Origin: Candidatus Tayloriibacteriota bacterium
Lineage (GTDB): Bacteria > Patescibacteriota > Minisyncoccia > Phycocordibacterales > PALSA-1337
NCBI GenBank assembly: GCA_943350765.1
Contig: CALRAJ010000002.1
Coordinates: 7,994 to 71,993, forward strand
Length of the DNA stretch: 64,000 nt
Reading direction: 5' to 3'
This document shows positions 22,954 through 43,668 of this stretch, in pieces; position 1 is the first letter of the stretch; every line of letters starts with the position of its first letter. The notes under the pieces were generated by a model. The model searched no databases and was not told the DNA's origin. It worked only from the letters and a program-made list of their open reading frames with translations. The position numbers and the translations under genes are program-made.

Positions 22954-22956
22954 TAT

Positions 22957-24069: not shown

Positions 24070-24772
24070 AGAGGATTTTAAAAAACTAAGAATTTATCCA
24101 GATGTATCTCTTGAGAATGGGTATGTAGTTGATTACGAAAAATATTGGAAAAAACGAGGTAGAAATAATCAATCGGTACTGACGCAGTGGCAGAAAGATC
24201 GTGCTGACCGTATCTCAAAGATGGTTTCAAAAGATGATGTGATCATTGATGTCGGATGCGGAGACGCTTCGCTTTTAAAATATTTAATTGATAAAACTGG
24301 AGTCCGTGGGGTTGGGGTCGATATGAGTGAGCCGATTCTCGAAAATGCAAAAAATATAGATGTAGAGACAATCGTCCTTGATATCTCAAAGATAGATACC
24401 CTGGGTCAGTTACCTGAAGCTGACTATATAATGGGACTGGAAATTTTGGAGCACATGCCGAATCCCGAAGAGTTTATAATGGCTGTTCGTAAGAAGGTTA
24501 GAAAAGGTATGATTTTTTCTTTCCCTAATACTGGGTATTATGCACATCGCTTGAGGTTACTTTTTGGCTCGTTCCCATTACAATGGATTTTGCACCCAAG
24601 TGAGCATTTACGCTACTGGACTGTACGAGATGCGCGTTTTTGGGTTGATTCACTTGGCTTTAAAATGGATAAAATTATTTTGTATCAAGGTGTAACCGTG
24701 CTAAATAATATATTTCCTTCGCTTTTTGGGAAGGGAATCATTATTAAAATTTCCGAAAAAAATGAAGGATAA
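24038..24772 (+). CDS. Class I SAM-dependent methyltransferase
   Basis: Motif I IIDVGCGDASLL; paralogous to 19377-20066 (shared EILEHMPNPEEF, HPSEHLRYW). Confidence 0.75.
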   Translation: MILKDILYTIKEDFKKLRIYPDVSLENGYVVDYEKYWKKRGRNNQSVLTQWQKDRADRISKMVSKDDVIIDVGCGDASLLKYLIDKTGVRGVGVDMSEPILENAKNIDVETIVLDISKIDTLGQLPEADYIMGLEILEHMPNPEEFIMAVRKKVRKGMIFSFPNTGYYAHRLRLLFGSFPLQWILHPSEHLRYWTVRDARFWVDSLGFKMDKIILYQGVTVLNNIFPSLFGKGIIIKISEKNEG

Positions 24773-26144
24773 GACCCTTCTGATAACAGTATTTCATAGT
24801 TTTATTTCAAAAAACTTTCTTAACACAGAGGCATTCTCTTTGTTGAAATCCTCGCCAGGACTCAAGATAATATTAATGGTCCCTAAAAATAAAGAAAGCT
24901 TTTTTACAGAACAGTATTCTGGTGTGAATGTCGTGGTGGCTGGATTTGATTTTGGTAGTATTCTCAGTAGAAAAAAAGTACAAATTTTATCTGCACTGAG
25001 CCATCTTCTTTTGGATTCCCATTATCTTTGGTATAAAAAGGTGGAACGGCGTGACAAAAGTACCCACTTACTAAGATCCATTAAGTATTATTTTGAACTA
25101 GCATTTACATATGTTTTTTCCGGTAAAAAGTATGCACATTCTGTGCTAAGATTTCTATTTAAAAAGATGCTTGTGGTCCCAGAAATTGAAGCTTTGTTCG
25201 ATCGATATGTACCAGATATTGTATTTTCTACAGATGTGTTTGATGAAATGGATGTCTTGGTAAATAGGGAGGCCAGAGCTCGAAGTATAAGGATTATTGG
25301 TATGGTCAGATCATGGGACAATTGCTACAGTAAGGGTGTTTTGCGAGTCATCCCCGACACTCTTTTGGTTAATAATGTAGAAATTAAAAAAGAAGCAATC
25401 TCTCTCCACGATGTTTGTGAAGATCAAATCAGTATTGTTGGTTTACCGCAATATGACCAGTTTGTGAATGGTGTTCGGACAGAGCGTAAAGACTTCTTTC
25501 GTGAAATAGGCGCAGATCAAAATAAAAAATTAATTCTTTTTTCTCCTGCTGGTTCAGTACTCTCAGATATTGATTGGCAGTTATGTACTATATTGAAGCG
25601 ATTGGTTGACACACATAAAATAAATGAACCGGTGACATTTCTAATTCGGAATCACCCACATCATCCGGCCGACTTGTCACTATTTAAGTCAGATTCAAAT
25701 TTTATAATAGAAAGACCCGGTACCTCGTTCGGCCTTAATGGTAAGGAGGTCGAGTTGTCTAGAAAAGACTCTCAACATCTCGGAGACTCTCTTTATTATA
25801 GTGATATTGTTATGTATGTCGCGACGACTTTGGGTAATGATTCATTACTTTTTGATAAGCCACAGATTATCATTAATTTTGACGGTTGGGAGAACAAAGA
25901 ATATGCAAGAAGCACTAAGAGATACCATAACGAAGACCATATGAAAAAGATGATAGCGTGCGGGGGTGTTTCGGTGGTTACAAATGAACAGGAGTTGACG
26001 ATAGCTCTAAACGCTTATTTGAAGGACCCTGGATATTTAAAGGAGGGGCGCTTGCGGACACTTGCTCAGCAGGTTTGTTATACGGACGGCAAGTCATGTG
26101 AAAGAATCACTCGTTGTCTCAATGAAGAACTGAAAAAAGTATAG
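24762..26144 (+). CDS. Hypothetical polysaccharide-biosynthesis protein (GT-B-like?)
   Basis: About 460-aa ORF in the glycan locus; no confident motif. Confidence 0.45.
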   Translation: MKDKTLLITVFHSFISKNFLNTEAFSLLKSSPGLKIILMVPKNKESFFTEQYSGVNVVVAGFDFGSILSRKKVQILSALSHLLLDSHYLWYKKVERRDKSTHLLRSIKYYFELAFTYVFSGKKYAHSVLRFLFKKMLVVPEIEALFDRYVPDIVFSTDVFDEMDVLVNREARARSIRIIGMVRSWDNCYSKGVLRVIPDTLLVNNVEIKKEAISLHDVCEDQISIVGLPQYDQFVNGVRTERKDFFREIGADQNKKLILFSPAGSVLSDIDWQLCTILKRLVDTHKINEPVTFLIRNHPHHPADLSLFKSDSNFIIERPGTSFGLNGKEVELSRKDSQHLGDSLYYSDIVMYVATTLGNDSLLFDKPQIIINFDGWENKEYARSTKRYHNEDHMKKMIACGGVSVVTNEQELTIALNAYLKDPGYLKEGRLRTLAQQVCYTDGKSCERITRCLNEELKKV

Positions 26145-26178
26145 TCAAAACTATTTGATATGGTAATATACATGGAAT

Positions 26179-27390
26179 ATGGATCAAAATAATGTTGTTG
26201 GTATTCAGATAAAGGACATACTCAAATCCACTCGTCTTGGTTTATTTCCATTACCGACAGATGTTTCTATTGAAGAATGCTGGACATGTTTCTGTTGTAC
26301 TAAAAAACTGGAAGTTTTTGCTGTATTAATTGGGGTAAAAGTACATTCTCAAATTCGTGTCGGAGTCTGTGGTTACTGTGGGTATATGGGGTATATTGAT
26401 CGGCCAGCCAAGGCATGGCTTACTTCCTTTTATTCTATTGATTGGGATAAAGAGTTTATGCGTTCGGCTACACAGATGAAAAGTGATGTTGTTTTGCAGA
26501 AGGGTGGTGTTAAAGGTAGTAGACAGCGTGCTTTTGAGCTCCATCGTCAGGTTCCGGTTGATAAAAAGAAGCCTTATTTTGAAATTGGAAGTGGTTACGG
26601 CCAAGTTATGAAGAACTTTGAAATTGCAGGTTTCGAAAAGCTCTATGGCATAGAGAATTCTAAACATCGAACTGAATTGGTAAAAAAAGTGTTTGGTTTC
26701 GAAATCCATCACGGTGATTTTGGGAGTAGAGAGGTCACAGAAAAGATCAATAAAAATGCTCCATACGGGCTTATTTTTTCACACCATGTGCTTGAGCATG
26801 TATACGATCCAAATGAGGTGGTGCGTGCTATGGCAGGGATGCAGGATGAAGGGGACTATGCTATTTTTGCAGTACCCAACGTTGCTGGTGAACATATGAA
26901 TTATGTCACTTTGTACTGGCCACATTTACATGGGTTTACAAAAGAGTCGCTCGAAATACTTTTTAATCGTCATGGTTATGAGGTCGTTGTCGACGGGTCC
27001 CCAGATATACTTAATATTATTTTTGTCCTAAAAAAAACAAAGAATCCAAAAGCAATTTTTAAAAAGAGAGATGATTATGTTGCTGAGGCAAAAAAACGAA
27101 TTCGTGTTGCCATGAGTGCAGGTGTCTTGTCGAAAGGTCTATCTGAGCTTCTTTGGGACCAAAAAATCACAGAGAGAGATAATTCATCAGTGCAAAAAAT
27201 AAGCGGGGGATTTTTCGGGGGAATTATTATTTGGCATGCGAAACAAATAATTTCTTGGATAAAGTCCAGAATTTTTAAAAGGCTTAGTGTGCAGTATTCA
27301 TTGCTTGTTTCGCCTGTTTTTGAGAAGATTAGTAAATATGATGCTTTCGAGATACAATTTAAAAAGAATATTACTTTCTTAATAAAATAG
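26179..27390 (+). CDS. SAM-dependent methyltransferase with N-terminal Cys-rich (zinc-ribbon-like) region
   Basis: CWTCFCC..CGYCGYM cysteine cluster; motif I FEIGSGYGQV; HHVLEHVYDP. Confidence 0.6.
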   Translation: MDQNNVVGIQIKDILKSTRLGLFPLPTDVSIEECWTCFCCTKKLEVFAVLIGVKVHSQIRVGVCGYCGYMGYIDRPAKAWLTSFYSIDWDKEFMRSATQMKSDVVLQKGGVKGSRQRAFELHRQVPVDKKKPYFEIGSGYGQVMKNFEIAGFEKLYGIENSKHRTELVKKVFGFEIHHGDFGSREVTEKINKNAPYGLIFSHHVLEHVYDPNEVVRAMAGMQDEGDYAIFAVPNVAGEHMNYVTLYWPHLHGFTKESLEILFNRHGYEVVVDGSPDILNIIFVLKKTKNPKAIFKKRDDYVAEAKKRIRVAMSAGVLSKGLSELLWDQKITERDNSSVQKISGGFFGGIIIWHAKQIISWIKSRIFKRLSVQYSLLVSPVFEKISKYDAFEIQFKKNITFLIK

Positions 27391-27392
27391 AT

Positions 27393-28145
27393 ATGATTCA
27401 GTATTATAATGTTGAGGCTTTTGCTCAGTTAAAAAAAGAACGGAAAACAGCCGGCAGGGGATTTAAGTACGGTTTTGTTACGGGTGTGTTTAAGGAAGAT
27501 GTATATAAGGAACTCATTCGCACTTTCCCTGATGTTAAGAAGTTTGAATTAGTAGATAAAGAATCCGGTGGAGGACATAAACGATTTTATGTTGGACCAA
27601 ATTATTATAGCGGAAAACATTGGGGGTCTACTAGACATCTCAATGGACTTCCTGAAATATGGAAAGAGGTTATAAAAGAATCTGGTTCAAAAGAACTACT
27701 TGATTTAGTAGCTGACGCTACAGGTGTTGATTGTAACTCACTTTGTAATTTTGGATTTACATACGGCAACGAGGGGTGTGTTCAGGGGCCACATATTGAT
27801 GGTGCTGCTCGACCAAATGACCCATCTCCTGTACACGCCACCATCGCCTGCCTGCTTTACTTTAATGAAAAAACAGGTGGTGTCGCGGGGACGGAAGTCT
27901 ATGATATTGATCGAAAAACAGTTTTGTTTGCGGTGCCTGATTTGCGAAACAGTTTCTTCTATTTTGAACAACATCCTGATTCTTGGCATGGTTTTCCGAC
28001 TGTACCAAAGGGGGCAGACCGTCGCCTGGTGAGTCTTTCATTTAGTCAGGAGAAAGATATAATCAAGATAGATGACTCATTCCTTAATGTAGTTTACCTT
28101 AAGAGTTTTGTTAAAGGGTTAATTAAAAAGATATTTAGTCGCTAG
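27393..28145 (+). CDS. 2OG-Fe(II) oxygenase-like protein
   Basis: HxD (GPHIDGAA), distal His (HPDSWHGF) and RxS (RRLVSLSF) triad arrangement. Confidence 0.45.
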   Translation: MIQYYNVEAFAQLKKERKTAGRGFKYGFVTGVFKEDVYKELIRTFPDVKKFELVDKESGGGHKRFYVGPNYYSGKHWGSTRHLNGLPEIWKEVIKESGSKELLDLVADATGVDCNSLCNFGFTYGNEGCVQGPHIDGAARPNDPSPVHATIACLLYFNEKTGGVAGTEVYDIDRKTVLFAVPDLRNSFFYFEQHPDSWHGFPTVPKGADRRLVSLSFSQEKDIIKIDDSFLNVVYLKSFVKGLIKKIFSR

Positions 28146-28196: not shown

Positions 28197-28925
28197 CTAT
28201 TTGTCTAACAAAAGTTTTTTGAATCTTATTTCTGACACTTCCCATTCGTCTGGGGTGTTAATATCCATTTCGTATTTTGCTGGTTCAGCCGTCACACAGA
28301 GCTCTACTTTATCGCCATAGAGATTTGGTCGCTCTGGGTCGTAGAGATTTTTTGGCTTCAAGACATATGCGATGTCATTTCGAGCGTAACATTTCTGAGG
28401 AAAATCTTGTCGACGGGTGAGTATTTTTTTAAGGGGCACATTTCCCCAGAGGGTAATTTTGCTATCCGGATTTCTGGTCAATGTCCAGTACGGAGTATGG
28501 TTTGCAGGTGTTTCGTTTACTGTTATCACAGAGTCAGCCAATGTTTTTTTAAAAATCTCGATTGCTTCTGTTAGATGATCTGCCTTTCGAGCTGGACTTG
28601 TTGGAAGGACCATAATAAGACCATCCGCCTCATAACCCTCGTTTTCTTTGAGCCATTCATATGTATGTTTTAGGACGGGTTCTATACCTATGGTGTCAAT
28701 TGAAAATTCTGGTGGTCTTAAAAAAGGTACTTCGGCACCATGTTCTTTTGCAATATCTGATATTTCTTTACTGTCCGTCGAGACGATGACCCTATCTATT
28801 AGAGGACAATTCTTTGCAGTTTCTATTGTCCATGCGATCAGGGGCTTACCACAAAAATCTCGGATATTTTTAAAAGGGATAGATTTTGAGCCACCTCTTG
28901 CTGGTATAATTGCTATAATTTTCAT
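28197..28925 (-). CDS. CMP-nonulosonic acid synthetase (acylneuraminate cytidylyltransferase family)
   Basis: MKIIAIIPARGGSKSIPFKNI...GKPLIAWTIE N-terminus diagnostic of the CMP-NeuAc/CMP-KDO synthetase fold. Confidence 0.8.
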   Translation of the reverse strand: MKIIAIIPARGGSKSIPFKNIRDFCGKPLIAWTIETAKNCPLIDRVIVSTDSKEISDIAKEHGAEVPFLRPPEFSIDTIGIEPVLKHTYEWLKENEGYEADGLIMVLPTSPARKADHLTEAIEIFKKTLADSVITVNETPANHTPYWTLTRNPDSKITLWGNVPLKKILTRRQDFPQKCYARNDIAYVLKPKNLYDPERPNLYGDKVELCVTAEPAKYEMDINTPDEWEVSEIRFKKLLLDK

Positions 28926-28957: not shown

Positions 28958-29905
28958 ATGCAAATTTTAAATTGGAAAATCGACCCAGTTTTGAAGAAAG
29001 AAATTGATGAGCATTATCGAACCGATTTTGCCTTGTCGATTAAAAATGAACCCGTAATCAATATAGTAAAAAAGATTACATTTGATAGTGTAGCTCCAAA
29101 TATTACCATTGAAGATGTGAAAATCTTTATGGATTATATAAATGAAACATTTCTAGATAGGGGAATCAAAGGTGTTGGACTTGAGGTTGGGGGAGGTTGC
29201 GGATTTTTTAGTGCATTACTTGCAACATATGCATCGGTTGAAAAAGTTTATTCTATTGAGATTTGTGAAAATATTGTTCGTGAGCTGATGCCTAAAGTTA
29301 TAGAAGAAGTTGCCGGGGAACACAAGGTGTATGAAAAAGTAATTGGCTGTGTCGGTGATTTTGATCGACTTGAGTTACCGAATGCATCGGTTGATTTTGT
29401 ATTTGATTTCTACTCACTACATCATTCATCAGATATAAAAAAGACTTTTACGGAGATTTGTCGAGTGCTCAAACATGGAGGCTTTATCTTTTGTTTTGAC
29501 AAAACCCGCGCAAATTCATTGACAGACGAAGGTCTAGAAAAGCTTCTCGACACAGAGTACTCCTCGGAAACAAAAATATCGATGGGTTTACCCCCGAACA
29601 TATTCCATACCCGTCGCATGAATGGTGAAAAAGAATACCGGCTCAAGGATTGGCAAAATTCGTTTTTAACAGCTGGGTTTAAAACTTTTAAGCATTATCA
29701 TATTGCTCGTCTTTCGGACACAAAATCTTTTACGAATCTAATTAAAAAAACATTATCGCTTCTTCCGGTTTCTATTCAGACTTTTTTTACGAAAATTCTG
29801 TCTCGTGATGGCAACAAAAATAATCTCGAGCAGTCCCATAAGATATATACCAAACTCGTCAACAATTTCCCTAAAGAGATTTCATTGATGGTGGTGCGGA
29901 AATAG
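28958..29905 (+). CDS. Class I SAM-dependent methyltransferase
   Basis: Motif I GLEVGGGCGFFS; VLKHGGFIF. Confidence 0.7.
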   Translation: MQILNWKIDPVLKKEIDEHYRTDFALSIKNEPVINIVKKITFDSVAPNITIEDVKIFMDYINETFLDRGIKGVGLEVGGGCGFFSALLATYASVEKVYSIEICENIVRELMPKVIEEVAGEHKVYEKVIGCVGDFDRLELPNASVDFVFDFYSLHHSSDIKKTFTEICRVLKHGGFIFCFDKTRANSLTDEGLEKLLDTEYSSETKISMGLPPNIFHTRRMNGEKEYRLKDWQNSFLTAGFKTFKHYHIARLSDTKSFTNLIKKTLSLLPVSIQTFFTKILSRDGNKNNLEQSHKIYTKLVNNFPKEISLMVVRK

Positions 29906-29956
29906 GTAGGTAGGAAAATAAAAAGAGGCTACCGAAGTAGCCCCGTGTGTTTGTGT

Positions 29957-31780
29957 CTATCCTGTCATGTCGAGGATTCTCTCGGTCTTGTCAGAATCGA
30001 TGTATCCACGAGCCTCGAGGAACTGCTCCTCGGAAAGCTCGCCGTAGTTGAGTGGCTTGCCGTCAGTGCCGTGAAGCACCTTGGTGGCGTCGTCGAGCTC
30101 AAGCACGTATTTTCGCAGATACTCATCCACGACTGGTTCCAGCTTGCAACCAGCTTTTTGTGCAAAGCTGATTCCGAAGTGCTCACCCAGTAGCTCTTGG
30201 ACTTTTGGGTGTCGGCACATCTGAGTGCCCGGGTAGGCCGTAGCAGTAAACATCCTCTTGTTGACGGATGCTACCGCGAGGTCGTAGTCTGGTGTGCCAG
30301 GAGTTTTGCCTCGAGTCATCTCGCCGATCTGCCACATGATAAATGCGACGGAGGTTTTGATTTCGCGAAGGCCTTCTTCTGGCCACCCCATGATCCATGT
30401 GCAGTTGGCATGAATGCCGGTTTCCTTGCACATTTTGATGCCGTTCATCATGGTGACGGGGAAGCGGTGATCGCCGACTTGCGTCAGCTGGTTTTCCCTA
30501 CTTCCTCTCGGTCGCAGGATAAACCCACCTTTTCCCATGCTTTCAAGCACTCGAGCGCTGGCACTTTCGGCACCGAAGCCGATGTAAATGCATCCGGCCT
30601 TGGCCATATAGCGCGCTCGGTCGTCCGCTTCGTCGAGGCGTGTGTGTGTGCCCCAACGAATACCCAAACCCTCGAATGTCTCAGGTAGGGCTTTCATGCG
30701 TGGAATGTTGACCCCGAAGTTGTCGTCGGGGAAGCCGAGGAAGTCAATCCCGTAGGTCCTGATCAGCCATTCGGCTTCGGCGCGGAGATTTGCAGGACTG
30801 CGCATACCGTAGTTGCGCTCACCCTGTCCTCCCCGGAAACAAAACTCGCAGGCGTAGGGACAGCCTCGGCTGGATACTGTCGTAAGGCTTCGTTTCATCG
30901 TAAACGATGTTGCGGAGCTATTGTTGGCAGCAGTGCCCCAGACAGGCGTTTTGATATACCACTCGAGCAGAGGATTTCCATGCACATCTTCGTGCAGGAG
31001 GTCCCATGCGGCAAATGGTAGCACATCCAGGTTTACAGGCCGGTCGCCCGCATACATGAGTCGGTGTTGTCCGCCGATTTCGCCCAAGTAGTAGGGGCTA
31101 TTTGACAGGAGGGAAAGATTCTTTCTCCCCCCGCGCTCTTTCAGGTGGTTGATCTCCTTTGCCATGAGCAAAATAACATCATCTCCTTCGGAGTGGGCAA
31201 CAGCATCGAGCTCAGGGATCCAACCAAAGAGTCCTTCTCGGATCTCAGTCGCGAGACCTCCGCCAGACACGAGAAACGCACCGGGCTGGAGCTTGCGACA
31301 AATCCTGGCAAAGTTTTCTTGCCAGCGGAGCGTAGTGATCATGCCTGAGAAGGCAATAATATCCTGATCGCCGTGTTTGGCGAGGTGAGCCTCGAGGAGC
31401 TGTTCGGCTTCCTGGAGCTTGAGGTGTCTACCGTTTGGCAAGCCACGTGCCATCGCATCTGCGTCCTGAAGCCGGTAGGCATTCAAGTCGAGGATGGTAG
31501 GCTCAGCTCCGTATTGACGAAGCCGTGCTGCCATAAGCCCCGGTCCTTGCGGAGGGGTGTTTGGCTTGGCACTTTCGCGCAGGGGCATGTTCACAAACAG
31601 CACCTTGACGCCTGTGAGTTCGCCAAATGTGAGTCTGGCAACCTGTGCGCTGGGGTGATCCAGCCCGACCAGCCGGCTCAGCTTGAGCTCGGGTGGTTTT
31701 GTGACTAGGAGGTTTGTCATGTCTACATTACCTTTCTTGGGTTGGTTTTGAGTGTGAAAAGTGGACGACAAATTGTTCAA
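29957..31780 (-). CDS. B12-binding-domain radical SAM enzyme (class B)
   Basis: CxxxCxxC (SSRGCPYACEFCF) preceded by a Rossmann-like cobalamin-binding-type N-domain (VLFVNMPL...GPGLMAARLRQYGAEPTILDLNA). GC-rich, unlike flanking genes. Confidence 0.75.
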   Translation of the reverse strand: MNNLSSTFHTQNQPKKGNVDMTNLLVTKPPELKLSRLVGLDHPSAQVARLTFGELTGVKVLFVNMPLRESAKPNTPPQGPGLMAARLRQYGAEPTILDLNAYRLQDADAMARGLPNGRHLKLQEAEQLLEAHLAKHGDQDIIAFSGMITTLRWQENFARICRKLQPGAFLVSGGGLATEIREGLFGWIPELDAVAHSEGDDVILLMAKEINHLKERGGRKNLSLLSNSPYYLGEIGGQHRLMYAGDRPVNLDVLPFAAWDLLHEDVHGNPLLEWYIKTPVWGTAANNSSATSFTMKRSLTTVSSRGCPYACEFCFRGGQGERNYGMRSPANLRAEAEWLIRTYGIDFLGFPDDNFGVNIPRMKALPETFEGLGIRWGTHTRLDEADDRARYMAKAGCIYIGFGAESASARVLESMGKGGFILRPRGSRENQLTQVGDHRFPVTMMNGIKMCKETGIHANCTWIMGWPEEGLREIKTSVAFIMWQIGEMTRGKTPGTPDYDLAVASVNKRMFTATAYPGTQMCRHPKVQELLGEHFGISFAQKAGCKLEPVVDEYLRKYVLELDDATKVLHGTDGKPLNYGELSEEQFLEARGYIDSDKTERILDMTG

Positions 31781-31843
31781 AGAGCGTTCGTCCGTATAAA
31801 ATAGTACTCAATTTTCTATATAAAGTCAAGTCATTGTTGTCGG

Positions 31844-32701
31844 ATGGTCTCTATGCTATTCTCAGTAATATATATGAATAATTTATTTTCACTCAAAGGC
31901 AAAAAAGTCGTACTGACCGGAGCGGCAGGCTTTTTCGGGACATACTTTGCCGAGGCACTTCTCTCGGCAGAAGCAGATAAAGTTTTCTGTGTTGATGTGA
32001 GTGAGCCAGGACTCGCTGATCTAAAAAAGCGCCTTGGCGCAAGTTCTTCAAAACAAGTCGAGTATGTTGTACTAGATCAAGGCGATCAAAAAATGGTTGC
32101 AAAAGTATTTGGCAAGCTGGCTGAGCATGGTGTGGATGTCCTCATCAACAATTCTTTTGTCTTTGGCGCACCGACTGGCTTTGCTCCAGCTCGAGGCCGT
32201 ATCGAAGACGCTACCTTTGAACAATTACAAAAATCTTTTGAATCTGGAATTTATTGGTCTATACAGGCTACACAGATTTTTGCCGAGGCAAGTAAAAAAA
32301 GCGACAAGCCATTGTCTGTGATCAACCTCGGCTCAATGTATTCGGTAGTGGTACCAAGTCCGACACTCTACGAAGGTTTTGATTATTACAACCCGCCCGG
32401 CTACAGCATGGCAAAGACCGGTCTGGTCGCGTTTACAAAATATACTGCCGCGTGGATGGGGCCACTCGTGCGTGCGAACATTCTCTGCCCAGGTGCTATT
32501 CCAAATGATGAAAAGAAATCGGCGAACTCTGAACAAAATAAAAACGATGCGTTTCGACAGAGAATGATTGATCGCACGGCACTCAAGCGTCTCGGACACC
32601 CAAATGATCTCGTAGGGACGGTGGTTTTCCTAGCTTCAGATGCTTCCAGCTATATTACGGGTCAAATGATCGTGGTGGATGGGGGATGGACTATTGTGTA
32701 A
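31844..32701 (+). CDS. Short-chain dehydrogenase/reductase (SDR); true start possibly 31874
   Basis: TGAAGFFG glycine motif; catalytic YxxxK (YSMAK). Confidence 0.8.
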   Translation: MVSMLFSVIYMNNLFSLKGKKVVLTGAAGFFGTYFAEALLSAEADKVFCVDVSEPGLADLKKRLGASSSKQVEYVVLDQGDQKMVAKVFGKLAEHGVDVLINNSFVFGAPTGFAPARGRIEDATFEQLQKSFESGIYWSIQATQIFAEASKKSDKPLSVINLGSMYSVVVPSPTLYEGFDYYNPPGYSMAKTGLVAFTKYTAAWMGPLVRANILCPGAIPNDEKKSANSEQNKNDAFRQRMIDRTALKRLGHPNDLVGTVVFLASDASSYITGQMIVVDGGWTIV

Positions 32702-32878
32702 ATAGCCCAAATTAGGAAACTCTTTCTCGGCGTATCTTTCTAGGAGTACGAATAAATTTCTGGTGAAATTTATCTCAGGTCTCGACTCCCGTCCTGCGCC
32801 GTCTACAGGAACACATCATCTACCGATGTGAAAGCCCCCTATAAAGATGTGTCTTCGACGAATTTCCTAATTTGGGCT
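32702..32878. mobile_element. MITE-like element, copy 3 (variant; TIR TAGCCCAAATTAGGAAA ... TTTCCTAATTTGGGCTA)
   Basis: Same TIR core and internal CTTTCTCGGCGTATC / CCGATGTGAAAG segments as the remnant at 52132. AT-rich insert inside the GC-rich island. Confidence 0.6.
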
Positions 32879-33029
32879 ATTTGCCTTGGTTGTTTACTGT
32901 GGATTATTGTGTATATGACATGTGGTCATTCTAATACCTTGAGTGCATCCAAGCTATTGAACCATTACCCGGTGGTATTGACTTTATTTGCAAATGGGTG
33001 TATAATAGGTTTTGGTCTGTTGGCGGTAG

Positions 33030-33647
33030 GTGCGGTCAAACAAGCTCTCTTATATGAAAAAACAATACTCGGAAACGCTCCTAGCGAAAGCTCGGAAGAT
33101 CAAGGCGGTTGTTCTCGACTGCGACGGCACTCTGACTGACAATACGGAGGTGACCGGTCTCGACGCGCCGTCTGCACACGGTTTGCTGAAGAGGCGTAGT
33201 CACTACGACGGTCAGGGCGTGTCCCTAATTCGAGCTGTGGGAATCCCTGTTGCGATAATTACGGGTGAAAAAGGTCCCGGCGCTCAGATGATTACCAAGC
33301 TCGTTGAAAGGTGGAACGGTCTGCCCTCTGTTAAAAATCGTGCATGGATACAAGTCGCTCTCTTCACCGGATATGCCGGCGAGGAAAAAGTTCTTAAGCT
33401 CCGCCAGTGGCTGAAGACAAACCAACTCACTTCTGAAGACTGCGCCGTGATGGGGGATGACCTCGTCGATGTGCCGATGCTTCGCGCAGTCGGATTTCGT
33501 GCCTGCCCGATTACCGCAGAAGAGGTAGTGCGGGAGATGGCCGACTTCATCAGCGACCGTCCTGCCGGCTACGGTGCAGTGCGTGATCTGGCAAACCTCA
33601 TCCTCACAGCTCGTGGTATTGATCCCACGACCCTGCCGACCAAGTAG
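33030..33647 (+). CDS. HAD-IIIA KdsC-like sugar-acid phosphate phosphatase
   Basis: VVLDCDGTLTD (DxDGT), ITG, MGDDLVDVPMLRAVGFRACPITAEE, AGYGAVRDLANLILTARG; classic KdsC/KDN-9-P phosphatase pattern. Confidence 0.75.
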   Translation: MRSNKLSYMKKQYSETLLAKARKIKAVVLDCDGTLTDNTEVTGLDAPSAHGLLKRRSHYDGQGVSLIRAVGIPVAIITGEKGPGAQMITKLVERWNGLPSVKNRAWIQVALFTGYAGEEKVLKLRQWLKTNQLTSEDCAVMGDDLVDVPMLRAVGFRACPITAEEVVREMADFISDRPAGYGAVRDLANLILTARGIDPTTLPTK

Positions 33648-33789
33648 GCTCGCTGGCGGTCCCAATAGTTTCCTCGCGTACCCTGAGTTTCTCGGGGTAT
33701 TTTTATTTTAAAATAAATCGCTGACCAAATCTGTACAAGTCCTGTATAGTATGATAGTGTGATTCTCGGTAGCTTTTTCCCAAACAATT

Positions 33790-34743
33790 ATGAGCAACAA
33801 AACAGTTCAGATCGGACCTTACGAGGTCGGCGGTAACAATCCGTGTCTGGTGGTGGCCGAGATCGGCATCAACCACAACGGATCATTGGAGTTCGTGAGT
33901 CGTTTGATCGACATGGCGGTGCTGGCGGGGTGTGGTGCTGTTAAATTTCAGACCCGCTCTGTGGATGTCGTCTATACGGCAGAGGAGCTGGCAAAGGCCA
34001 GGGCTGTACCGACAGATGTGGTTCAGCACGCTCTCATGCGGAGTGTTTTGCCTACTGAGGCAATCAGTCGCCTCGGAAAAGACATCACCAACACAACCAA
34101 CGGCGACCTCAAGCGTGCCCTTGAATTTAGCGCGGAGGACTACAGGTTGATCGACGACTACTGCAGGACCAAGGGTGTTATCTGGTTCTCTTCCCCTTGG
34201 GACGAGGCCTCGGTGGACTTGATCGAGCAGTTTAATCCTCCGTGCTTCAAGGTGGCTTCTGCGTCGCTTACCGACCGGGGACTCCTTGAGCGCATTGCGT
34301 CTTATGGGCGTCCGGTGATTCTCGGCACAGGCATGTCGAGCATGGATCAGGTCCGCAAGGCTATTGCTGTGCTTAACGGTGTGCCGGTGATCTTGAGTCA
34401 TACGGTCTCGACTTATCCGGCCAAGCGGTCTGATCTCAACCTGCGTGCCATCCATACCTTGCAAAAGGAGTTTGGTGTACCGGTCGCCTACAGTGGTCAC
34501 GAGAATGGCACGACCATGTCGGTGTGTGCGGTAGCGCTCGGTGCGTGCATGGTTGAGCGACACATCACCCTCGATCGGACCATGTTCGGCAGTGATCAGT
34601 CAGCCAGTCTCGAGGCGGTCGGTCTCACGACCATGATCCGCAATATCCGCGATCTCGAAGGTGCCCTAGGCACCGGCGAAAAGCAGATTCTCGATGCCGA
34701 AAAGCCGATTGCTGCCAAGCTCCGTCGCAAGGACACGCTCTAG
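33790..34743 (+). CDS. NeuB-family nonulosonic acid synthase (no C-terminal SAF domain)
   Basis: VVAEIGINHNGSLE...GCGAVKFQT, ILGTGMSSMDQV, HTVSTYP, SGHENG, MVERHITLD; matches the NeuB/PseI/LegI TIM-barrel motifs. Confidence 0.8.
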   Translation: MSNKTVQIGPYEVGGNNPCLVVAEIGINHNGSLEFVSRLIDMAVLAGCGAVKFQTRSVDVVYTAEELAKARAVPTDVVQHALMRSVLPTEAISRLGKDITNTTNGDLKRALEFSAEDYRLIDDYCRTKGVIWFSSPWDEASVDLIEQFNPPCFKVASASLTDRGLLERIASYGRPVILGTGMSSMDQVRKAIAVLNGVPVILSHTVSTYPAKRSDLNLRAIHTLQKEFGVPVAYSGHENGTTMSVCAVALGACMVERHITLDRTMFGSDQSASLEAVGLTTMIRNIRDLEGALGTGEKQILDAEKPIAAKLRRKDTL

Positions 34744-34766
34744 GCCTAGGCTTGTGGTTGGTACAA

Positions 34767-34797
34767 GTGGACACTAATACTGTCCACTTTTTTATTT
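34767..34797. terminator. Bidirectional terminator GTGGACA-CTAATAC-TGTCCAC plus TTTTTTATTTT between convergent genes
   Basis: 7-bp stem with T-run; sits between the NeuB-like gene (plus strand) and the flippase (minus strand). Confidence 0.55.
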
Positions 34798-36143
34798 TAT
34801 ACAGTAGCTTTACTCGCAGTGTTTTCGTCAGGTAATTCCTTTAAATTTTTCAGGAGGAAAAACATCACGAGGGCAGTGAGGTATTTTGTTACAACTAAGG
34901 AAACAATGATACCCAATACTCCATAGAAATATACCGAAATAAGCATGAATACTGTGCTAAAAATACTGACACCAAGACTAAGTATATACTTTTCTTTCAG
35001 GGCTTTTTTTGCGGTAAAGGCAGTATCAGATAAATTACCTAACAGTAGCATAAAGACGGAGTATATTTGGGAATAAAATACCGAATCCATATATTGAGGG
35101 AAGAATATTTTGTATATATAGGGTGCTAGAATAATGTAGGCAAGCACGATTGGACCAAGTACGAGAAGGGAAAGGAGGAATTTTTTTGGCACACTCTCCT
35201 TAAGTTCTTCTAAACTTCTTCCTGCAAGCTTGGGCATAGCAAGTGGTGCCAACATACCAACAAAACTGCGTACCTGTTTTGGTATTGCTGTAGAAAAAGT
35301 GTATATGGCAAGCTCAGCAGCACCTAGGTAGTGGTAGACAAGGACCTTGTCTACTTGAGCAGAAATATTTAGCCAAATATTTATAAAACTTATATGTTTT
35401 CCAAAATTGAAAGCTGTATAGTCGACGGGTGCATCAGTCGTCACCCCACGAGCTATTTTAAAGTAAAAAAAAGATTTAGTCAGAAGATCGGCTCCAAAAA
35501 ATACAGCAACTAAAGCAATTACATTGTCGGTAAAGAGGATTGCAATAAAAAATGCGACAGCTGCCGTAATACTTTCGACAGAATTATACAAAGAGCTTTT
35601 TTTAAAGTCTTTTTTACCACTCAAGTATGGACCGTATAATCCAACCGTTTTTAATAGCGGTGAAATACAAGCGATGATAATAAGCGATATTCCGAGCGTG
35701 TAGTTATTGTTAAATAAATAGTATCCAGCACCGATGAGTGATCCTACTACCATAAAAACACTCCACTTTAAACTCACGGAAATCGCTTTTTTAAATGTGC
35801 CGTCATACCCCCTTGCTACTGCCCGAGTTAGCGCTGTGCCGAGACCTGTCAATGTGAAGGTGGTTATAATACCTGAAATAGAAATAATGTATTTGTAATC
35901 CCCGTATACTTCTTTTGGTAGAAAGTGTGCACAGGCTATTGCGAGTAGGAATGATCCTGCGGAGGCAACTCCCTGACTGAAAAAGAGCCAAAAACTCCCT
36001 TTGGTGAGGTAAACCATGTCCGTCTTTGTAAAACGCTCGCTTTTGCGGAGAAGGGAATATACTCGACTGCGGAGGTTTTTTGGGGTGGGGTCTAGATCTG
36101 GCTGTGTCGGTATTATTGGCATTTCTTTTGTATCTATATCCAT
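34797..36143 (-). CDS. Polysaccharide flippase (Wzx-like, MOP superfamily)
   Basis: 448 aa, about 12-14 TM helices; typical Wzx topology and position in the glycan locus. Confidence 0.7.
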   Translation of the reverse strand: MDIDTKEMPIIPTQPDLDPTPKNLRSRVYSLLRKSERFTKTDMVYLTKGSFWLFFSQGVASAGSFLLAIACAHFLPKEVYGDYKYIISISGIITTFTLTGLGTALTRAVARGYDGTFKKAISVSLKWSVFMVVGSLIGAGYYLFNNNYTLGISLIIIACISPLLKTVGLYGPYLSGKKDFKKSSLYNSVESITAAVAFFIAILFTDNVIALVAVFFGADLLTKSFFYFKIARGVTTDAPVDYTAFNFGKHISFINIWLNISAQVDKVLVYHYLGAAELAIYTFSTAIPKQVRSFVGMLAPLAMPKLAGRSLEELKESVPKKFLLSLLVLGPIVLAYIILAPYIYKIFFPQYMDSVFYSQIYSVFMLLLGNLSDTAFTAKKALKEKYILSLGVSIFSTVFMLISVYFYGVLGIIVSLVVTKYLTALVMFFLLKNLKELPDENTASKATV

Positions 36144-36162: not shown

Positions 36163-38628
36163 ATGCAAACAAATAATATACTACGATATGTGGTTTTGGG
36201 TGGGATTTTTTTAGTGCCATTTGTTTTCCTAATCGTCTCAGAAAGCTTGTTTTTTCCATTTATTACAGGTAAAGGTTTCGTATTTCGCGTTATCGTTGAG
36301 ATTGTTTTTGGTACATGGCTAATTTTAGCATTACGAGATAGGTCGTATATGCCGAGCTTTTCGAAACTTACTATAGCACTAATTTCATTTACAGGTATTG
36401 TACTCATTGCTGATTTAGCTGGTATGAATCCAGTAAAAAGTCTCTGGAGCAATTACGAGCGGATGGAAGGCTTTGTAGTCATGGCACATCTACTAGGCTA
36501 CTATTTAGTCGCAAGCTCAGTTTTAACGACAGAAAAGCTTTGGGATAAGTTTATGCACACAGCTTTTGGTGTAGGGCTATTTATCTCTTTTTATGCTTTT
36601 CTACAAAAAATCGGAGAAATAAAAATCAATCAAGGCGACACCCGTCTCGACGCCACTCTCGGTAACTCGATTTATCTCGCGGTCACCATGCTGTTCCTGA
36701 TCTTCTTTGGTGTTTTGTGGTTTATACGAAATCGTACTAATATCTCAAATATTTTGTATAGCTGGATACTCGGTCTAGGACTTTTTATCGCCTATCCATT
36801 TTATGCTTATTACCAAAAGTTTTCTGAGATTCAAGACTATTACGGTAAAAATGTTATTCCACAAGAGGTAAAAGATCGAGTATTTTTTTGGGCTGGGCAA
36901 ACTCAAGCGGGTGTTACGACGGGATTGTGGCAACCGATACTTTTTTGGTTGGCAATAGTTTTGTTTATTGTGGCAGTGTACACATACGCAAAGAGTTCTA
37001 AACTAAGTTCGTCTCTACATAAATGGACGGCACATATTTTGTACGGATTGCTGATCGTGATCAATGTGGTGGTTTTATTTAATACAGGTACACGAGGTAC
37101 GATCATTGCACTTATGGGTGGCGCTTTTCTGACCGCGATTATTATTGCTTTATTTGAAAAGCATCGACCTTTGGTACGCAAATCTGCGATAGGGGTCATG
37201 GTAATCATCCCGCTTTTAGTGGGTGCGTTTTATATGGTTCGGACAAGTCATTTTGTTACGAGTCACCAAATGATCGCTCGGTATGCCTTGATATTTACAT
37301 ACGAAAACAAAACACAAGCACGAGGCTATGTCTGGCCTATGGCGATAGATGGATTTAAGGAAAAACCAATTCTTGGCTGGGGTCAGGAAAACTTTAGTTA
37401 TGTTTTTAATAAAAACTATGACCCGAGAATGTATGCTCATGAACAGTGGTTTGACCGGGCTCACAATGTGTTTTTGGACTGGCTCATCGCAGGGGGTATA
37501 CTAGCTTTTCTAGGATATGTTTCTTTGTATGGAATAGTGCTTTACTTTTTATGGAGAAAAAGGGAAGTACATTTTTCCGTAGTCGACAAGGCAATACTCA
37601 CGGGTCTTTTGGGAGCGTACGCAGTACATAATGTGTTTGTGTTTGATAATCTAGTCAGCTACATCCTCTTTTTTAGTTTTCTGGCATACATTCACACCCT
37701 TTCTCATCCGCCAAAAAATGAAACTCTTGTAAATTTTGAACTTGAGAAAGGTATTGTGGAGAGTATTATTGCACCAATCGTTATTATTGCGACAATTTTT
37801 GCAATATACATCATCAACTGGAATGCATATTTTGCTGGACAGACTTTGATAGATGCCTTACAACAGAGAAGTGGAAGCCCAACAAAAACACTAGAGCTTT
37901 TCAATCAGGTCTTTGAGTACGATTCGTTTGGTAGTAACGAGGCGAGAGAACAGCTCTCCATGGCTACTGGACAAATGCTCGGGAAAAATGTCGATCCTGC
38001 TATTCAGCAAAAATTCCTAACACTTGTGCGTAAACAGATAGACGAACAGCTCAAAGAAGCACCTTTTGATGCGAGGGCATATGTTTTTGCGGGTGCTTTT
38101 TTTAGTCAGATTGGACTGGCTGGCGAATCAGAAAAATACTTAGAAGATGCCTATAAGCTGTCTCCAAACAAGCAAAGTATCATTATCCAGCTCGGTGAAA
38201 ATAAAATGAACCTAGGGAAAATAGATGAGGCTGTTACTTTGTTTAAAAAGGCATATGAGCTGGAAACAACACAAGAACAAGCTAGAAATATTTATATTTC
38301 TGTACTCGTCTATGCCAAGCAAGAAAAAGAAGCCGAAAGGATTTTGATGGAATCATACGGCACTACTGTAATACCAGATGAGCGTTTGTTGCAAGCTTAT
38401 ATAAATACAAATAATTTTAAAAAGGCGTTACCGATAGTAGAGTTATTAATTGAAAAAGAACCGAGAAATGTAAAACATCATTTTGCTCTGGGTATTATTT
38501 TATATAAACTCGGACAAACAACAAAGGCAATCGCAGAGCTTGATCTAATAGTTAAAATGGAGCCAAGTACAAAAGGACAGATTGATGAGTATATAAAGTT
38601 GATGAAGGCAGGTAAGTCGATACAATAA
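36163..38628 (+). CDS. O-antigen ligase/polymerase-like (Wzy_C) membrane protein with C-terminal TPR repeats
   Basis: 821 aa; multi-TM N-half with Wzy_C-like segment; C-terminal 250 aa with TPR-like repeats. Confidence 0.7.
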   Translation: MQTNNILRYVVLGGIFLVPFVFLIVSESLFFPFITGKGFVFRVIVEIVFGTWLILALRDRSYMPSFSKLTIALISFTGIVLIADLAGMNPVKSLWSNYERMEGFVVMAHLLGYYLVASSVLTTEKLWDKFMHTAFGVGLFISFYAFLQKIGEIKINQGDTRLDATLGNSIYLAVTMLFLIFFGVLWFIRNRTNISNILYSWILGLGLFIAYPFYAYYQKFSEIQDYYGKNVIPQEVKDRVFFWAGQTQAGVTTGLWQPILFWLAIVLFIVAVYTYAKSSKLSSSLHKWTAHILYGLLIVINVVVLFNTGTRGTIIALMGGAFLTAIIIALFEKHRPLVRKSAIGVMVIIPLLVGAFYMVRTSHFVTSHQMIARYALIFTYENKTQARGYVWPMAIDGFKEKPILGWGQENFSYVFNKNYDPRMYAHEQWFDRAHNVFLDWLIAGGILAFLGYVSLYGIVLYFLWRKREVHFSVVDKAILTGLLGAYAVHNVFVFDNLVSYILFFSFLAYIHTLSHPPKNETLVNFELEKGIVESIIAPIVIIATIFAIYIINWNAYFAGQTLIDALQQRSGSPTKTLELFNQVFEYDSFGSNEAREQLSMATGQMLGKNVDPAIQQKFLTLVRKQIDEQLKEAPFDARAYVFAGAFFSQIGLAGESEKYLEDAYKLSPNKQSIIIQLGENKMNLGKIDEAVTLFKKAYELETTQEQARNIYISVLVYAKQEKEAERILMESYGTTVIPDERLLQAYINTNNFKKALPIVELLIEKEPRNVKHHFALGIILYKLGQTTKAIAELDLIVKMEPSTKGQIDEYIKLMKAGKSIQ

Positions 38629-38891: not shown

Positions 38892-39103
38892 CCCAAATCT
38901 CTTTCTCGGCACGACCTTTTTCATGCACGAGTATTTCTATGGTAAGAAATCTCTCAAATCTCGCGTGCCATGCCGTAGCCTTTGGCGAAGGCAGGGCTGC
39001 CCATGCACATGAAACTTGCTAGTTTCAGTATCTTCCTCGCCTCCGCTCGTCGACTTCCGAACCCTCTTAAAAAGACATACCTTCGACGAATTTTGCAATT
39101 TTA
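38892..39103. mobile_element. MITE-like element, diverged/expanded copy 5
   Basis: Shares CACGAGTATTTCT-TGGTAAGAAATCTCTCAA and the 3' end CTTAAAAAGACATACCTTCGACGAATTTTGCAATTTT with the other copies; carries an about 70-nt internal insertion. Confidence 0.45.
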
Positions 39104-40377: not shown

Positions 40378-40442
40378 AACGGCTCACTGGTCTGTAGTCG
40401 ATGGCTCACTGCTTTTTAATACAAAGCAGTGAGCCATCGACC
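40378..40442. repeat. GATGGCTCACTG-family repeat, left boundary of the R-M island (half-site plus 18-bp hairpin)
   Basis: CAACGGCTCACTGGTCTGTAGTCGATGGCTCACTGCTTT-TTAATAC-AAAGCAGTGAGCCATCGACC; near-identical to 44018-44105. Confidence 0.65.
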
Positions 40443-40570
40443 TAAAATATAGCTATAATAAAGGGTTCAATTAGTATTGGTAGGTATATAGGTAAGCGAT
40501 GTACAAGACTATATATTTCTACAAGCAAAAATGATAGAATGGATATATGTGAATGATTTAAAAAAACACT

Positions 40571-41842: not shown

Positions 41843-41846
41843 AAAT

Positions 41847-42530: not shown

Positions 42531-42534
42531 AACT

Positions 42535-42933
42535 ATGGAACAATTACTTTTACAACTTGGGTTAGGAATTGCTTCAAACACGATGTATGATTTTTTGAAG
42601 GATTTTTTCACTAAAAATTATAAACCTGATAGATTACAATTACAAAATAAGCTAGCTTCTTTTCTTGATGTTCAAAACGCCAACATAATAGCCGATAAAA
42701 TTATTACTTTTTTGGCTCAGAATGGAGATATAAGAATTAATGGAACGAGTATTTACGCTAATGATTCAATTTCTATGTCTTCCACAAAAAACACAAAATT
42801 TACTTTTGGAAATAATAGTTCCAGTACAACGAAAAATACAAAAATAGAAGTTGGTAATGGTGCTTTCATTCAAGGACAAGGCTGTGCAGGAATAAAACAA
42901 AATGACGATGGCAGTATTAATCTTTTTACTTAA
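42535..42933 (+). CDS. Hypothetical small protein with Asn/Ser/Thr-rich C-terminus
   Basis: 132-aa ORF tightly packed (4-bp spacers) inside the R-M island. Confidence 0.35.
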   Translation: MEQLLLQLGLGIASNTMYDFLKDFFTKNYKPDRLQLQNKLASFLDVQNANIIADKIITFLAQNGDIRINGTSIYANDSISMSSTKNTKFTFGNNSSSTTKNTKIEVGNGAFIQGQGCAGIKQNDDGSINLFT

Positions 42934-42936
42934 ATT

Positions 42937-43605: not shown

Positions 43606-43668
43606 AATAGAAATAGGCATAAAACTATTTAGATGTACCACGCACGCATCGTCTAGTACTAAAAAATC

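Follow-up and report, generated by a model that had tools for sequence, protein, structure and literature searches.

As determinants on the cell surface, nonulosonic acids play a key part in host-microbe and phage-microbe recognition. The diversity described so far lies in N- and O-substituents and in stereochemistry. Here we describe a surface-glycan locus of a Candidatus Tayloriibacteriota bacterium (Patescibacteriota) in which genes of the nonulosonic-acid type stand beside a gene for a radical S-adenosylmethionine (SAM) enzyme. The locus lies in a stretch of 64,000 nt of contig CALRAJ010000002.1 (assembly GCA_943350765.1, positions 7,994 to 71,993 of the forward strand), hereafter called the window. 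Coordinates are positions in this window, L-numbers denote fetched genomic loci, and P-numbers denote homologous proteins.

The pathway type that combines a NeuB-family synthase, a phosphatase and a CMP-sugar synthetase is well known, and its closest described form is the phosphatase-dependent route to Kdn and Neu5Ac (Bacteroides thetaiotaomicron, animals). Like this route, the window locus has a NeuB-family synthase, a KdsC-type phosphatase of the haloacid dehalogenase (HAD) superfamily and a CTP_transf_3 cytidylyltransferase, and it carries no nucleotide-aminosugar genes. It differs in adding the radical SAM enzyme, a short-chain dehydrogenase/reductase (SDR) and several methyltransferases, in having a NeuB without the SAF domain, and in equivalog scores that all fall below cutoff. 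Pseudaminic and legionaminic acid clusters are also related: of the NCBIfam models, PseF is one of the best for the cytidylyltransferase and PseI for NeuB, and PtmA matches the SDR weakly. However, genes of the PseB/C/H/G and LegB/C/H/G types are absent from the window locus, no score reaches its equivalog cutoff, and the locus encodes a phosphatase, which the pseudaminic and legionaminic routes do not need.

For the radical SAM enzyme, the closest described systems are the class B methyltransferases (GenK, GenD1, MoeK5 and Fom3; TokK, TsrM and CysS). These proteins share with the window enzyme a Rossmann B12-type domain and a CxxxCxxC TIM-barrel core, and the window enzyme aligns with the cobalamin domain of TokK; on the other hand, identities are only 13-19%, and the match to the B12-binding family PF02310 is below the gathering score. 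Fom3, which is coupled to Fom1, reportedly acts on a CMP-linked substrate, cytidylyl-hydroxyethylphosphonate, which invites comparison with the tight pairing of radical SAM enzyme and cytidylyltransferase described below. A second system is AprD4/AprD3, a 1,2-diol dehydratase and an NADPH-dependent reductase that carry out C3' deoxygenation in apramycin biosynthesis. AprD4 is 19% identical to the window enzyme with N-terminal domains that do not align in sequence, the SDR partner of the window-type enzyme is not conserved outside Patescibacteria, and the context is an ulosonic acid rather than an aminoglycoside. In the literature searched, including a 2026 review of B12-dependent radical SAM enzymes, we found no radical SAM enzyme linked with nonulosonic or ulosonic acids, and NCBIfam and the literature yielded no characterized member or curated model for this family. 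This agrees with an initial annotation of the window, made from the sequence alone, which knew of no such precedent. The embedded radical SAM enzyme is thus the new variation on a familiar pathway.

Our analyses indicate that the region is probably the central part of a conserved module, maintained by vertical descent, for making a modified ulosonic (sialic-acid-like) sugar activated with CMP; the module is set within a Wzx/Wzy-type surface-glycan locus of a Taylorbacteria-like member of Patescibacteria. Its features are as follows (bit scores are those of the Pfam matches).

28197 to 28925, minus strand: CTP_transf_3 cytidylyltransferase, CMP-ulosonate synthetase type (PF02348, 84.9 bits)
28958 to 29905, plus strand: class I SAM methyltransferase, convergent with the radical SAM gene (PF08241, 55 bits)
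29925 to 29944, both strands: hairpin between the methyltransferase and radical SAM genes, probable bidirectional terminator, at the left edge of a shift in guanine-plus-cytosine (GC) content
29957 to 31720, minus strand: radical SAM enzyme, 587 aa (PF04055, 58.7 bits)
31721 to 31843: AT-rich region between the radical SAM and SDR genes, putative divergent promoter region (GC 0.366)
31844 to 32701, plus strand: classical SDR oxidoreductase (PF13561, 103.6 bits)
32700 to 32882: palindromic repeat resembling a miniature inverted-repeat transposable element (MITE), directly past the SDR stop codon, with 45-nt inverted arms
32978 to 33006, plus strand: sigma-70-like candidate promoter, TTGACT-17 nt-TATAAT, upstream of the phosphatase and NeuB genes (11 of 12 consensus matches)
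33030 to 33647, plus strand: KdsC/YrbI-type HAD-IIIA phosphatase (KdsC-type models and motifs)
33678 to 33700, plus strand: terminator-like hairpin past the phosphatase gene, 10-pair stem, then TTTTATTTTA
33790 to 34743, plus strand: short NeuB-family ulosonate synthase, phosphoenolpyruvate (PEP)-condensing type, 317 aa (PF03102, 235.6 bits)
34765 to 34789, plus strand: hairpin that separates NeuB from the convergent Wzx gene, putative terminator, at the right edge of the GC shift, 9-12 bp stem, then TTTTTTATTTTA

The evidence for a module comes from gene context. We fetched 80 genomic loci with relatives of the radical SAM gene and clustered all open reading frames (ORFs) within ±7 kb; 52 of the loci (28 from Patescibacteria, 24 from others) have at least 5 kb on both sides. 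The 80 loci represent many Patescibacteria lineages (Taylor-, Zambryski-, Vogel-, Azam- and Yanofskybacteria, and others) and, outside this group, cultured Roseibium (50-52% identity), Polyangiaceae, Acidobacteriota, Planctomycetota, Nitrospirae and Opitutia, with a distant Desulfobulbia-type group at 33-37% identity. The commonest neighbor across phyla is the CTP_transf_3 cytidylyltransferase, often located immediately downstream on the same strand. It occurs in 49 of the 80 loci (28 Patescibacteria, 21 other; median gap, 97 nt), plus 6 in a second cluster. NeuB is found in 40 loci, the KdsC-type HAD in 34, the SDR in 28, Wzx in 27, and AP_endonuc_2 and Glyphos_transf in 22 each, followed by methyltransferases, SIS and DegT in fewer. 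Within 5 kb of the radical SAM gene, CTP_transf_3 is present in 39 of the 52 full-flank loci (22/28 Patescibacteria, 17/24 others), NeuB in 29 and the HAD in 24, and at least 44 of the 52 have CTP_transf_3 or NeuB; tblastn adds L034, L040 and L042. In addition, 16 loci have an ortholog of the methyltransferase encoded at 28958-29905 adjoining the radical SAM gene (median gap, 53 nt). The best homologs of the window genes therefore cluster with sugar-pathway genes, and the link between the radical SAM gene and nonulosonic-acid genes proposed in the initial annotation extends to several phyla.

Two loci outside Patescibacteria illustrate the range of arrangements. On the Roseibium chromosome, the order is FNR-like oxidoreductase, NeuB (316 aa), HAD, methyltransferase, TylF-type methyltransferase, radical SAM enzyme and CTP_transf_3. 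An ATP-grasp protein and a tetratricopeptide repeat (TPR) protein lie beside this module, the latter reminiscent of FlmG, which is involved in flagellin glycosylation in Alphaproteobacteria (PMC7591256). In Polyangiaceae, the radical SAM and CTP_transf_3 genes form an isolated pair amid unrelated genes, and this pair is the tightest conserved unit overall. Conversely, the Patescibacteria contig L089 has a NeuB-SIS fusion, HAD, SDR and CTP_transf_3 without the radical SAM gene, and the latter may therefore provide a tailoring step added to a base pathway.

Within Patescibacteria of the Paceibacteria type, the whole locus is syntenic. Across Zambryskibacteria and other lineages, the order is SecA-MurB-Wzy-Wzx-NeuB-(AP_endonuc_2/SDRs/HAD)-radical SAM-(SIS)-CTP_transf_3-methyltransferase-Glyphos_transf, continuing to GT4 glycosyltransferases. 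The close relative L088 has an order identical to that of the window, and the Wzx/Wzy flank is syntenic in L003, L004, L006, L083, L084 and L088. By presence/absence among relatives, the genes of the GC-rich block occupy the same position in L003, L088 and the syntenic Patescibacteria loci.

Two observations concern individual loci. Directly downstream of the radical SAM homolog on a Sungiibacteriota chromosome (CP066690; L086 12152-13555) are a reverse transcriptase (RVT_1) and bAvd, an arrangement typical of a diversity-generating retroelement. Two metagenome-assembled genomes (MAGs) labeled 'uncultured Gammaproteobacteria' (L051, L066) have radical SAM sequences nested in the Patescibacteria clade and Patescibacteria-type synteny, and these contigs are probably mis-binned.

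The block at about 29.9-34.8 kb stands out in composition, with a GC content of about 0.55 as opposed to about 0.37 around it. An abrupt shift at its edges had been noted initially, and sliding-window and per-gene analyses bear out the deviation, which is not uniform across the locus. GC is 0.53-0.58 across 30000-31749 and 33000-34749, falls to 0.42-0.47 at 31750-33249 (SDR gene and inverted repeat), and is 0.33-0.41 in the flanks. The GC content and the GC content at third codon positions (GC3) are, respectively, 0.557 and 0.624 for the radical SAM gene, 0.550 and 0.592 for the phosphatase gene, 0.564 and 0.673 for NeuB, and 0.456 and 0.420 for the SDR gene; the remaining 44 ORFs of the window average 0.392 (standard deviation [sd] 0.043) and 0.341 (sd 0.058). 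Spacers within the block have a host-like GC content of 0.37-0.45, and the cytidylyltransferase gene has a GC3 of 0.33, i.e., host composition. Three of the four block genes are thus strong compositional outliers in a mosaic, non-uniform block, and the SDR gene is compositionally outside it. The initial view of one GC-rich four-gene block holds for the radical SAM, phosphatase and NeuB genes and fails for the SDR gene and the spacers. A second compositional outlier in the window is a 171-aa ORF at 10948-11463 (GC 0.53, GC3 0.56) without a Pfam match.

An assembly chimera was considered and rejected: the same sequence and junctions are present in independent public assemblies, and the junctions recur in L001, L002 and the two related genomes L003 and L088. 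Dual coding by antisense ORFs was rejected as a cause of the high GC3 and low synonymous divergence described below. The lengths of these ORFs agree with the codon-shuffled expectation and their open runs vary among relatives; they are artifacts, as had been suspected.

Comparison among relatives indicates that the GC-rich 'island' is probably a long-standing, gene-family-specific high GC3 of the radical SAM and NeuB genes across Patescibacteria, to which the phosphatase is added in the window lineage. The radical SAM, HAD and NeuB genes are likewise GC-rich in L088 and in L003, a Taylorbacteria MAG. Synonymous divergence (dS) of the genes flanking the block, between the window and these two genomes, is 0.9-2.3 or saturated, so that the GC-rich state predates the split of the three. 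In L083 and L084, NeuB, HAD and radical SAM genes have a GC3 of 0.46-0.58, and the interleaved SDR, AP_endonuc_2, SIS and CMP-transferase genes are host-like (0.31-0.41). Over 42 Patescibacteria loci, the radical SAM gene exceeds the local background GC3 by 0.133 (93% positive, p = 9e-12) and NeuB does so by 0.107 (p = 2e-6), as opposed to about 0 for twelve other gene families. The radical SAM excess in other phyla is +0.03. In Patescibacteria, GC3 of the radical SAM gene follows host GC3 with a slope of 0.96 and an intercept of 0.15.

The same two genes have unusually low dS. In all three genome pairs (window, L003, L088), the values for radical SAM and NeuB genes are 0.37-0.52, which is 3-4-fold below their neighbors: SecA has 1.42 (92% amino acid identity), the CMP-transferase 1.49 (90%), the SDR 1.35 (93%) and the HAD 0.94-2.0. 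The comparison disregards the Glyphos_transf row, which is out of frame. Protein conservation alone was rejected as a cause of the GC3 excess, as equally conserved proteins (CMP-transferase, SDR, SecA) have neither an excess nor reduced dS. One candidate cause is selection on synonymous sites, in which case the equal proportion of synonymous differences (pS) across pairs would reflect a lower saturation plateau.

Frequent homologous recombination at the radical SAM and NeuB genes as anchors, coupled with GC-biased gene conversion, is a possible if not a favored explanation in place of synonymous selection. It would explain why dS of these genes is nearly equal in all three pairs while that of the flanks varies by pair, and it is consistent with a gene order around the radical SAM gene that differs among loci and with the absence of the GC3 offset outside Patescibacteria. 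Cassette rearrangement or exchange is also suggested by L003, where a second, fragmentary KdsC-like copy (11854-12322) lies downstream of the radical SAM gene; this fragment has 86% nucleotide identity to the window KdsC gene, compared with about 73% for the intact L003 copy. Yet neither effect is seen in the CMP-transferase, SDR and SecA genes despite equal protein conservation, and equal pS may instead mark the plateau expected under synonymous constraint. The persistent GC3 excess and reduced dS in Patescibacteria radical SAM and NeuB genes thus point to synonymous-site selection or to GC-biased conversion at recombination anchors of the glycan locus.

In the radical SAM enzyme, a B12-type Rossmann domain at the N terminus is followed by a CxxxCxxC core and a C-terminal domain. 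The core matches PF04055 with 58.7 bits (cutoff, 29.5), and in an alignment of 19 sequences the motif GCPYACEFC, with C287, C291 and C294, is invariant, as are many residues of the N-terminal domain. For PF02310, the window protein scores 21.0 bits against a gathering score of 32.1, while 17 of 19 family members match at E<=0.01 (best E, 1.4e-6). A profile search of solved structures gave TokK at E = 1e-10, across the cobalamin domain (residues 64-127) and the radical SAM core, followed by AprD4 (core only) and then CysS. An AlphaFold (AF2) model (predicted local distance difference test [pLDDT] 84.6, predicted template modeling score [pTM] 0.87) contains a partial TIM-barrel, and its 17 best Foldseek matches all combine a B12-type domain with a radical SAM core (TokK, TsrM, AprD4, OxsB, CysS and MgmA). 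With the model and profile matches in agreement, the predicted class B architecture, a Rossmann B12-type domain fused to the core, can be regarded as established. The family is compact: 56 representative clusters (50% identity) are found at E<=1e-30, 2,300 at 1e-10 and 15,112 at 1e-3. Its best NCBIfam model reaches 62 bits against a cutoff of 750, and the family has no name.

AprD4 has the B12-type fold, yet binds no cobalamin (PMC12931638). The fold is therefore an insufficient sign of cobalamin use, and fold searches such as ours cannot separate cobalamin-dependent methylation (TsrM, TokK) from AprD4-type dehydration. The initial assignment as a class B, cobalamin-dependent enzyme is accordingly retained for the fold, which Foldseek and the TokK alignment recover, and weakened for cobalamin itself, given the PF02310 score and the AprD4 precedent.

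The remaining enzymes are of known families. NeuB is above the PF03102 cutoff of 22.1 bits and below the equivalog cutoffs of N-acetylneuraminate synthase TIGR03569 (243.1 vs 399.65 bits) and PseI TIGR03586 (194.8 vs 340.25). No SAF domain (PF08666) match was found in its 317 aa, and its closest relatives, all about 316 aa, also have none. Its solved matches are NeuB, SpsE and PseI at 1e-42 to 1e-31, the best being a 290-aa NeuB (6ncs). The phosphatase has the HAD motifs DCDGT (DxDxT) and GDDLVD (GDxxxD). Its best NCBIfam models are KdsC and, second, Kdn-9-P phosphatase, all below cutoff (NF007019, 79 vs 208; NF058599 [Kdn-9-P phosphatase], 70.6 vs 180; TIGR01670, 67.6 vs 106.95 bits), and YrbI/KdsC phosphatases are its best solved matches. 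The cytidylyltransferase is above the PF02348 cutoff of 22.6 bits, and its best NCBIfam model is PseF (TIGR03584, 149.9 vs 205.7, below cutoff). The nearest solved relatives of the SDR are sugar-acid dehydrogenases.

We assign pathway functions from family membership, and from these we infer the order of steps and the chemistry, which gene context supports as a biosynthetic pathway. NeuC, PseB/C and Leg-type genes were not found in the window locus, which would favor a Kdn-9-P type of route that uses a sugar phosphate and depends on a phosphatase. Close NeuB homologs include NeuB-SIS fusions of 523-539 aa (P0150, P0196 and L089 6076-7695), which, together with SIS genes in 13 loci, suggests an isomerase-derived aldose phosphate as the NeuB substrate. 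In the proposed pathway, the SAF-less NeuB would condense PEP with an aldose phosphate (Kdn-9-P/Neu5Ac-9-P type), most likely mannose-6-P or a similar compound, and the KdsC-like phosphatase would then strip the terminal phosphate. The radical SAM enzyme would abstract hydrogen at an unactivated carbon, either of the ulosonate itself or of the CMP ester. We lean slightly toward cobalamin-dependent C-methylation, with the methyl group coming from methylcobalamin, because the N-terminal domain aligns with the cobalamin domain of TokK and matches PF02310; the second choice is AprD4-like 1,2-diol dehydration followed by reduction of the ketone by the adjacent SDR to give a deoxy sugar. The CTP_transf_3 enzyme would form the CMP-sugar, class I methyltransferases may O-methylate the sugar, and TagF-like and GT4 transferases, Wzx and Wzy would place it in a surface polymer. 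Genes for these last steps lie in the flanks of the block, which contain the following:

13733 to 28145, plus strand: left part of the glycan locus, with GT4 glycosyltransferases and SAM methyltransferases
24726 to 26144: TagF-like Glyphos_transf, in the left part of the locus
27393 to 28145: weakly 2OG-oxygenase-like protein, in the left part of the locus
34797 to 36143, minus strand: Wzx-type flippase, host composition (PF01943)
36163 to 38628, plus strand: Wzy_C/TPR polymerase or ligase, host composition (PF04932 and TPR)

The locus has four class I SAM methyltransferases (19377, 24038, 26179 and 28958), and six GT4 glycosyltransferases are encoded in the host-composition flanks. The four block gene identities proposed initially are matched by Pfam and NCBIfam, and the adjoining host-composition CMP-nonulosonate synthetase and four methyltransferases that it listed are all present.

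That the radical SAM enzyme is instead a cobalamin-independent, AprD4-like 1,2-diol dehydratase, with the SDR as its ketoreductase in the role of AprD3 and a product such as deoxy-Kdn, appears somewhat unlikely. The enzyme shares the AprD4 fold as noted, but its N-terminal domain aligns with the cobalamin domain of TokK and not with that of AprD4, the family matches PF02310 in nearly all members, and NCBIfam models of the methyltransferase and BchE types score 50-62 bits compared with 25 bits for AprD4. In addition, the SDR gene is not next to the radical SAM gene in Roseibium, Polyangiaceae or L003.

It is improbable that the radical SAM-cytidylyltransferase pair acts on another substrate, such as a CMP-linked phosphonate or polyol, with NeuB and HAD co-located only through the shared glycan locus. 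Fom3, as said above, would be the model for this, and the pair is indeed the tightest unit, with no NeuB within 5 kb in Polyangiaceae and several other loci outside the candidate phyla radiation (CPR). Weak NCBIfam matches of the enzyme include P-methyltransferases, and TagF-like Glyphos_transf genes recur in the loci. However, CTP_transf_3 is the acylneuraminate/Kdo cytidylyltransferase family, with PseF as the best model; NeuB and the KdsC-type HAD co-occur with the pair in Patescibacteria as well as Roseibium; and the 22 neighbor families that recur most often include neither PEP mutase nor any phosphonate gene.

The GC-rich genes had been described as a horizontally acquired island, and this part of the initial annotation is for the most part not supported. 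We searched rSAM (the radical SAM protein) and NeuB against 5.8 billion proteins, and rSAM against 185,579 genomes. The closest rSAM homologs (66-76% identity) and NeuB homologs (84-85%, then <=62%) are Patescibacteria sequences from low-GC genomes, and a neighbor-joining (NJ) tree places the window and L003 rSAM deep within the Patescibacteria clade. A GC-rich foreign donor was accordingly rejected, as all close and named relatives in these searches are Patescibacteria. No integrase or mobility genes, flanking tRNA or direct repeats bounding the block were found. A recent, contiguous island from a GC-rich donor that was inserted in a native glycan locus and brought a new four-gene function is very improbable: it would account for the strong deviation with sharp edges at intergenic hairpins, for a dS of rSAM and NeuB below that of the flanks, as if these genes shared more recent ancestry, and for the extreme GC3 excess and GC-rich HAD of the window lineage, but it conflicts with the orthologous slots in a widely syntenic locus, with host-like genes interleaved in window and relatives, with a GC3 excess that recurs over 42 loci and follows the GC3 of the host, with the high dS of the HAD and SDR genes that lie between rSAM and NeuB, with the Patescibacteria homologs and tree, and with the absence of mobility signatures. 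High GC3 and low dS in two non-adjacent genes likewise do not fit a single contiguous transfer.

Several points weigh against a vertically maintained module for a C-modified ulosonic sugar. The window, L003 and L088 top the distribution of GC3 excess (+0.26 to +0.34; mean, +0.13), and their HAD gene is GC-rich, which the HAD family on average is not; these data are compatible with an older event in which the ancestor shared by the three genomes acquired replacement alleles from a GC-richer Patescibacterium. The low dS of rSAM and NeuB could mean exchange among the three lineages after their split. On the chemical side, the sub-cutoff PF02310 score counts against cobalamin binding, and to our knowledge Patescibacteria usually cannot make cobalamin, which weakens the methylation proposal. 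Outside Patescibacteria, the SDR is not a conserved neighbor of rSAM, and L003 lacks the gene, which weakens the combination of dehydratase and reductase. Finally, the identity of the sugar, the sequence of reactions and the chemistry of rSAM are all predictions. The biosynthetic idea put forward initially, that of a novel C-modified nonulosonic acid, is strengthened by a module context that recurs across phyla, while its cobalamin component is reduced to a B12-type fold.

The SDR gene and the MITE-like repeat are separate, later-varying pieces of the block. The 1.1-kb segment 31831-32931, which contains both, has no counterpart in L003, the nearest genome, where a single short spacer separates the KdsC and rSAM genes. 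L088 has an SDR ortholog (93% amino acid identity) without the repeat, and its SDR-HAD spacer is an empty site. The element is a non-coding 183-nt sequence with 45-nt arms (32700-32744 and 32838-32882) and perfect 19-nt termini, and it folds as a long hairpin (z = -6.5). Further copies are found in the window at about 6995-7150, between the 16S rRNA gene and tRNA-Ile, in L003 at 3880-4005 and in L088 at 14987-15134; a remnant at 38894-38955, in the Wzy-MurB spacer, marks a site that holds full copies in both relatives. No clean target-site duplication was found at the junction, which has about 243 nt extra relative to L088, including the 183 nt of the element, and no cognate transposase was seen in the window. 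Multiple copies, perfect termini and the empty site all support the MITE insertion that had been proposed at 32702-32878.

A different part of the window does contain an insertion. A low-GC segment of about 3.8 kb between MurB and SecA (40387-44220) encodes two N6_N4_Mtase proteins and a RE_BsaWI-type endonuclease, i.e., a restriction-modification system. Judged by presence/absence, this segment, for which L088 has no counterpart, was truly inserted, in contrast to the GC-rich genes.

Candidate regulatory signals, which were assigned by consensus, complete the map. At the left edge of the block, the minus-strand stem (29944-29925, 8 pairs, then TTTTTATTTT) lies just past the rSAM stop codon, and the plus-strand stem (29927-29942) follows the methyltransferase gene; at both edges, hairpins and T-runs just past the stop codons of convergent gene pairs coincide with the compositional boundaries, as first described. 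The region has 8 terminator-like sites as opposed to 8.5 expected from shuffles, and because their number is not above expectation, the terminator calls depend on position between convergent genes. The sigma-70-like sequence at 32978-33006 is kept in L088 and L003. Promoter-like hexamers occur on the minus strand at 31829-31801 within the rSAM/SDR spacer, which, up to 31830, aligns with L003 inside a rSAM block of 90% identity. Database gene models start at 31720 for rSAM (587 aa), 31874 for the SDR (275 aa) and 33054 for the HAD (197 aa); the rSAM open frame extends beyond the database start to a TTG at 31780. Known RNAs detected with Rfam were limited to 16S rRNA, a tRNA and part of a group II intron, which all lie away from the block, and no cobalamin riboswitch was found near the genes. 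These RNAs lie at 4742-7401, in the order 16S rRNA gene (4742-6255), group II intron D1-D4 fragment (6447-6525, 39.6 bits) and tRNA-Ile (7327-7401). A protein ORF begins at 7817, so 23S rRNA does not directly follow 16S rRNA and tRNA-Ile in the window.

Two lessons concern genome evolution. An old gene-family signature can take the form of a sharply bounded GC 'island' with terminator-like edges, so that such an island need not indicate recent transfer, and a locus in which only two genes combine high GC3 with low dS merits a population-genetic study. With regard to function, we tentatively propose that the rSAM family is a dedicated tailoring enzyme of a Kdn-type pathway, catalyzing C-methylation or radical deoxygenation, and that chemically undescribed nonulosonic acids may occur on the surfaces of many Patescibacteria and in glycans, possibly flagellar, of marine Roseibium and members of other phyla. 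If true, the radical SAM step would add modification of the carbon skeleton to the nonulosonic-acid repertoire. Its occurrence in cultured Roseibium makes the prediction experimentally tractable. The module is found widely among Patescibacteria, and it is probably the little-explored surface chemistry of these bacteria that governs their episymbiotic attachment.

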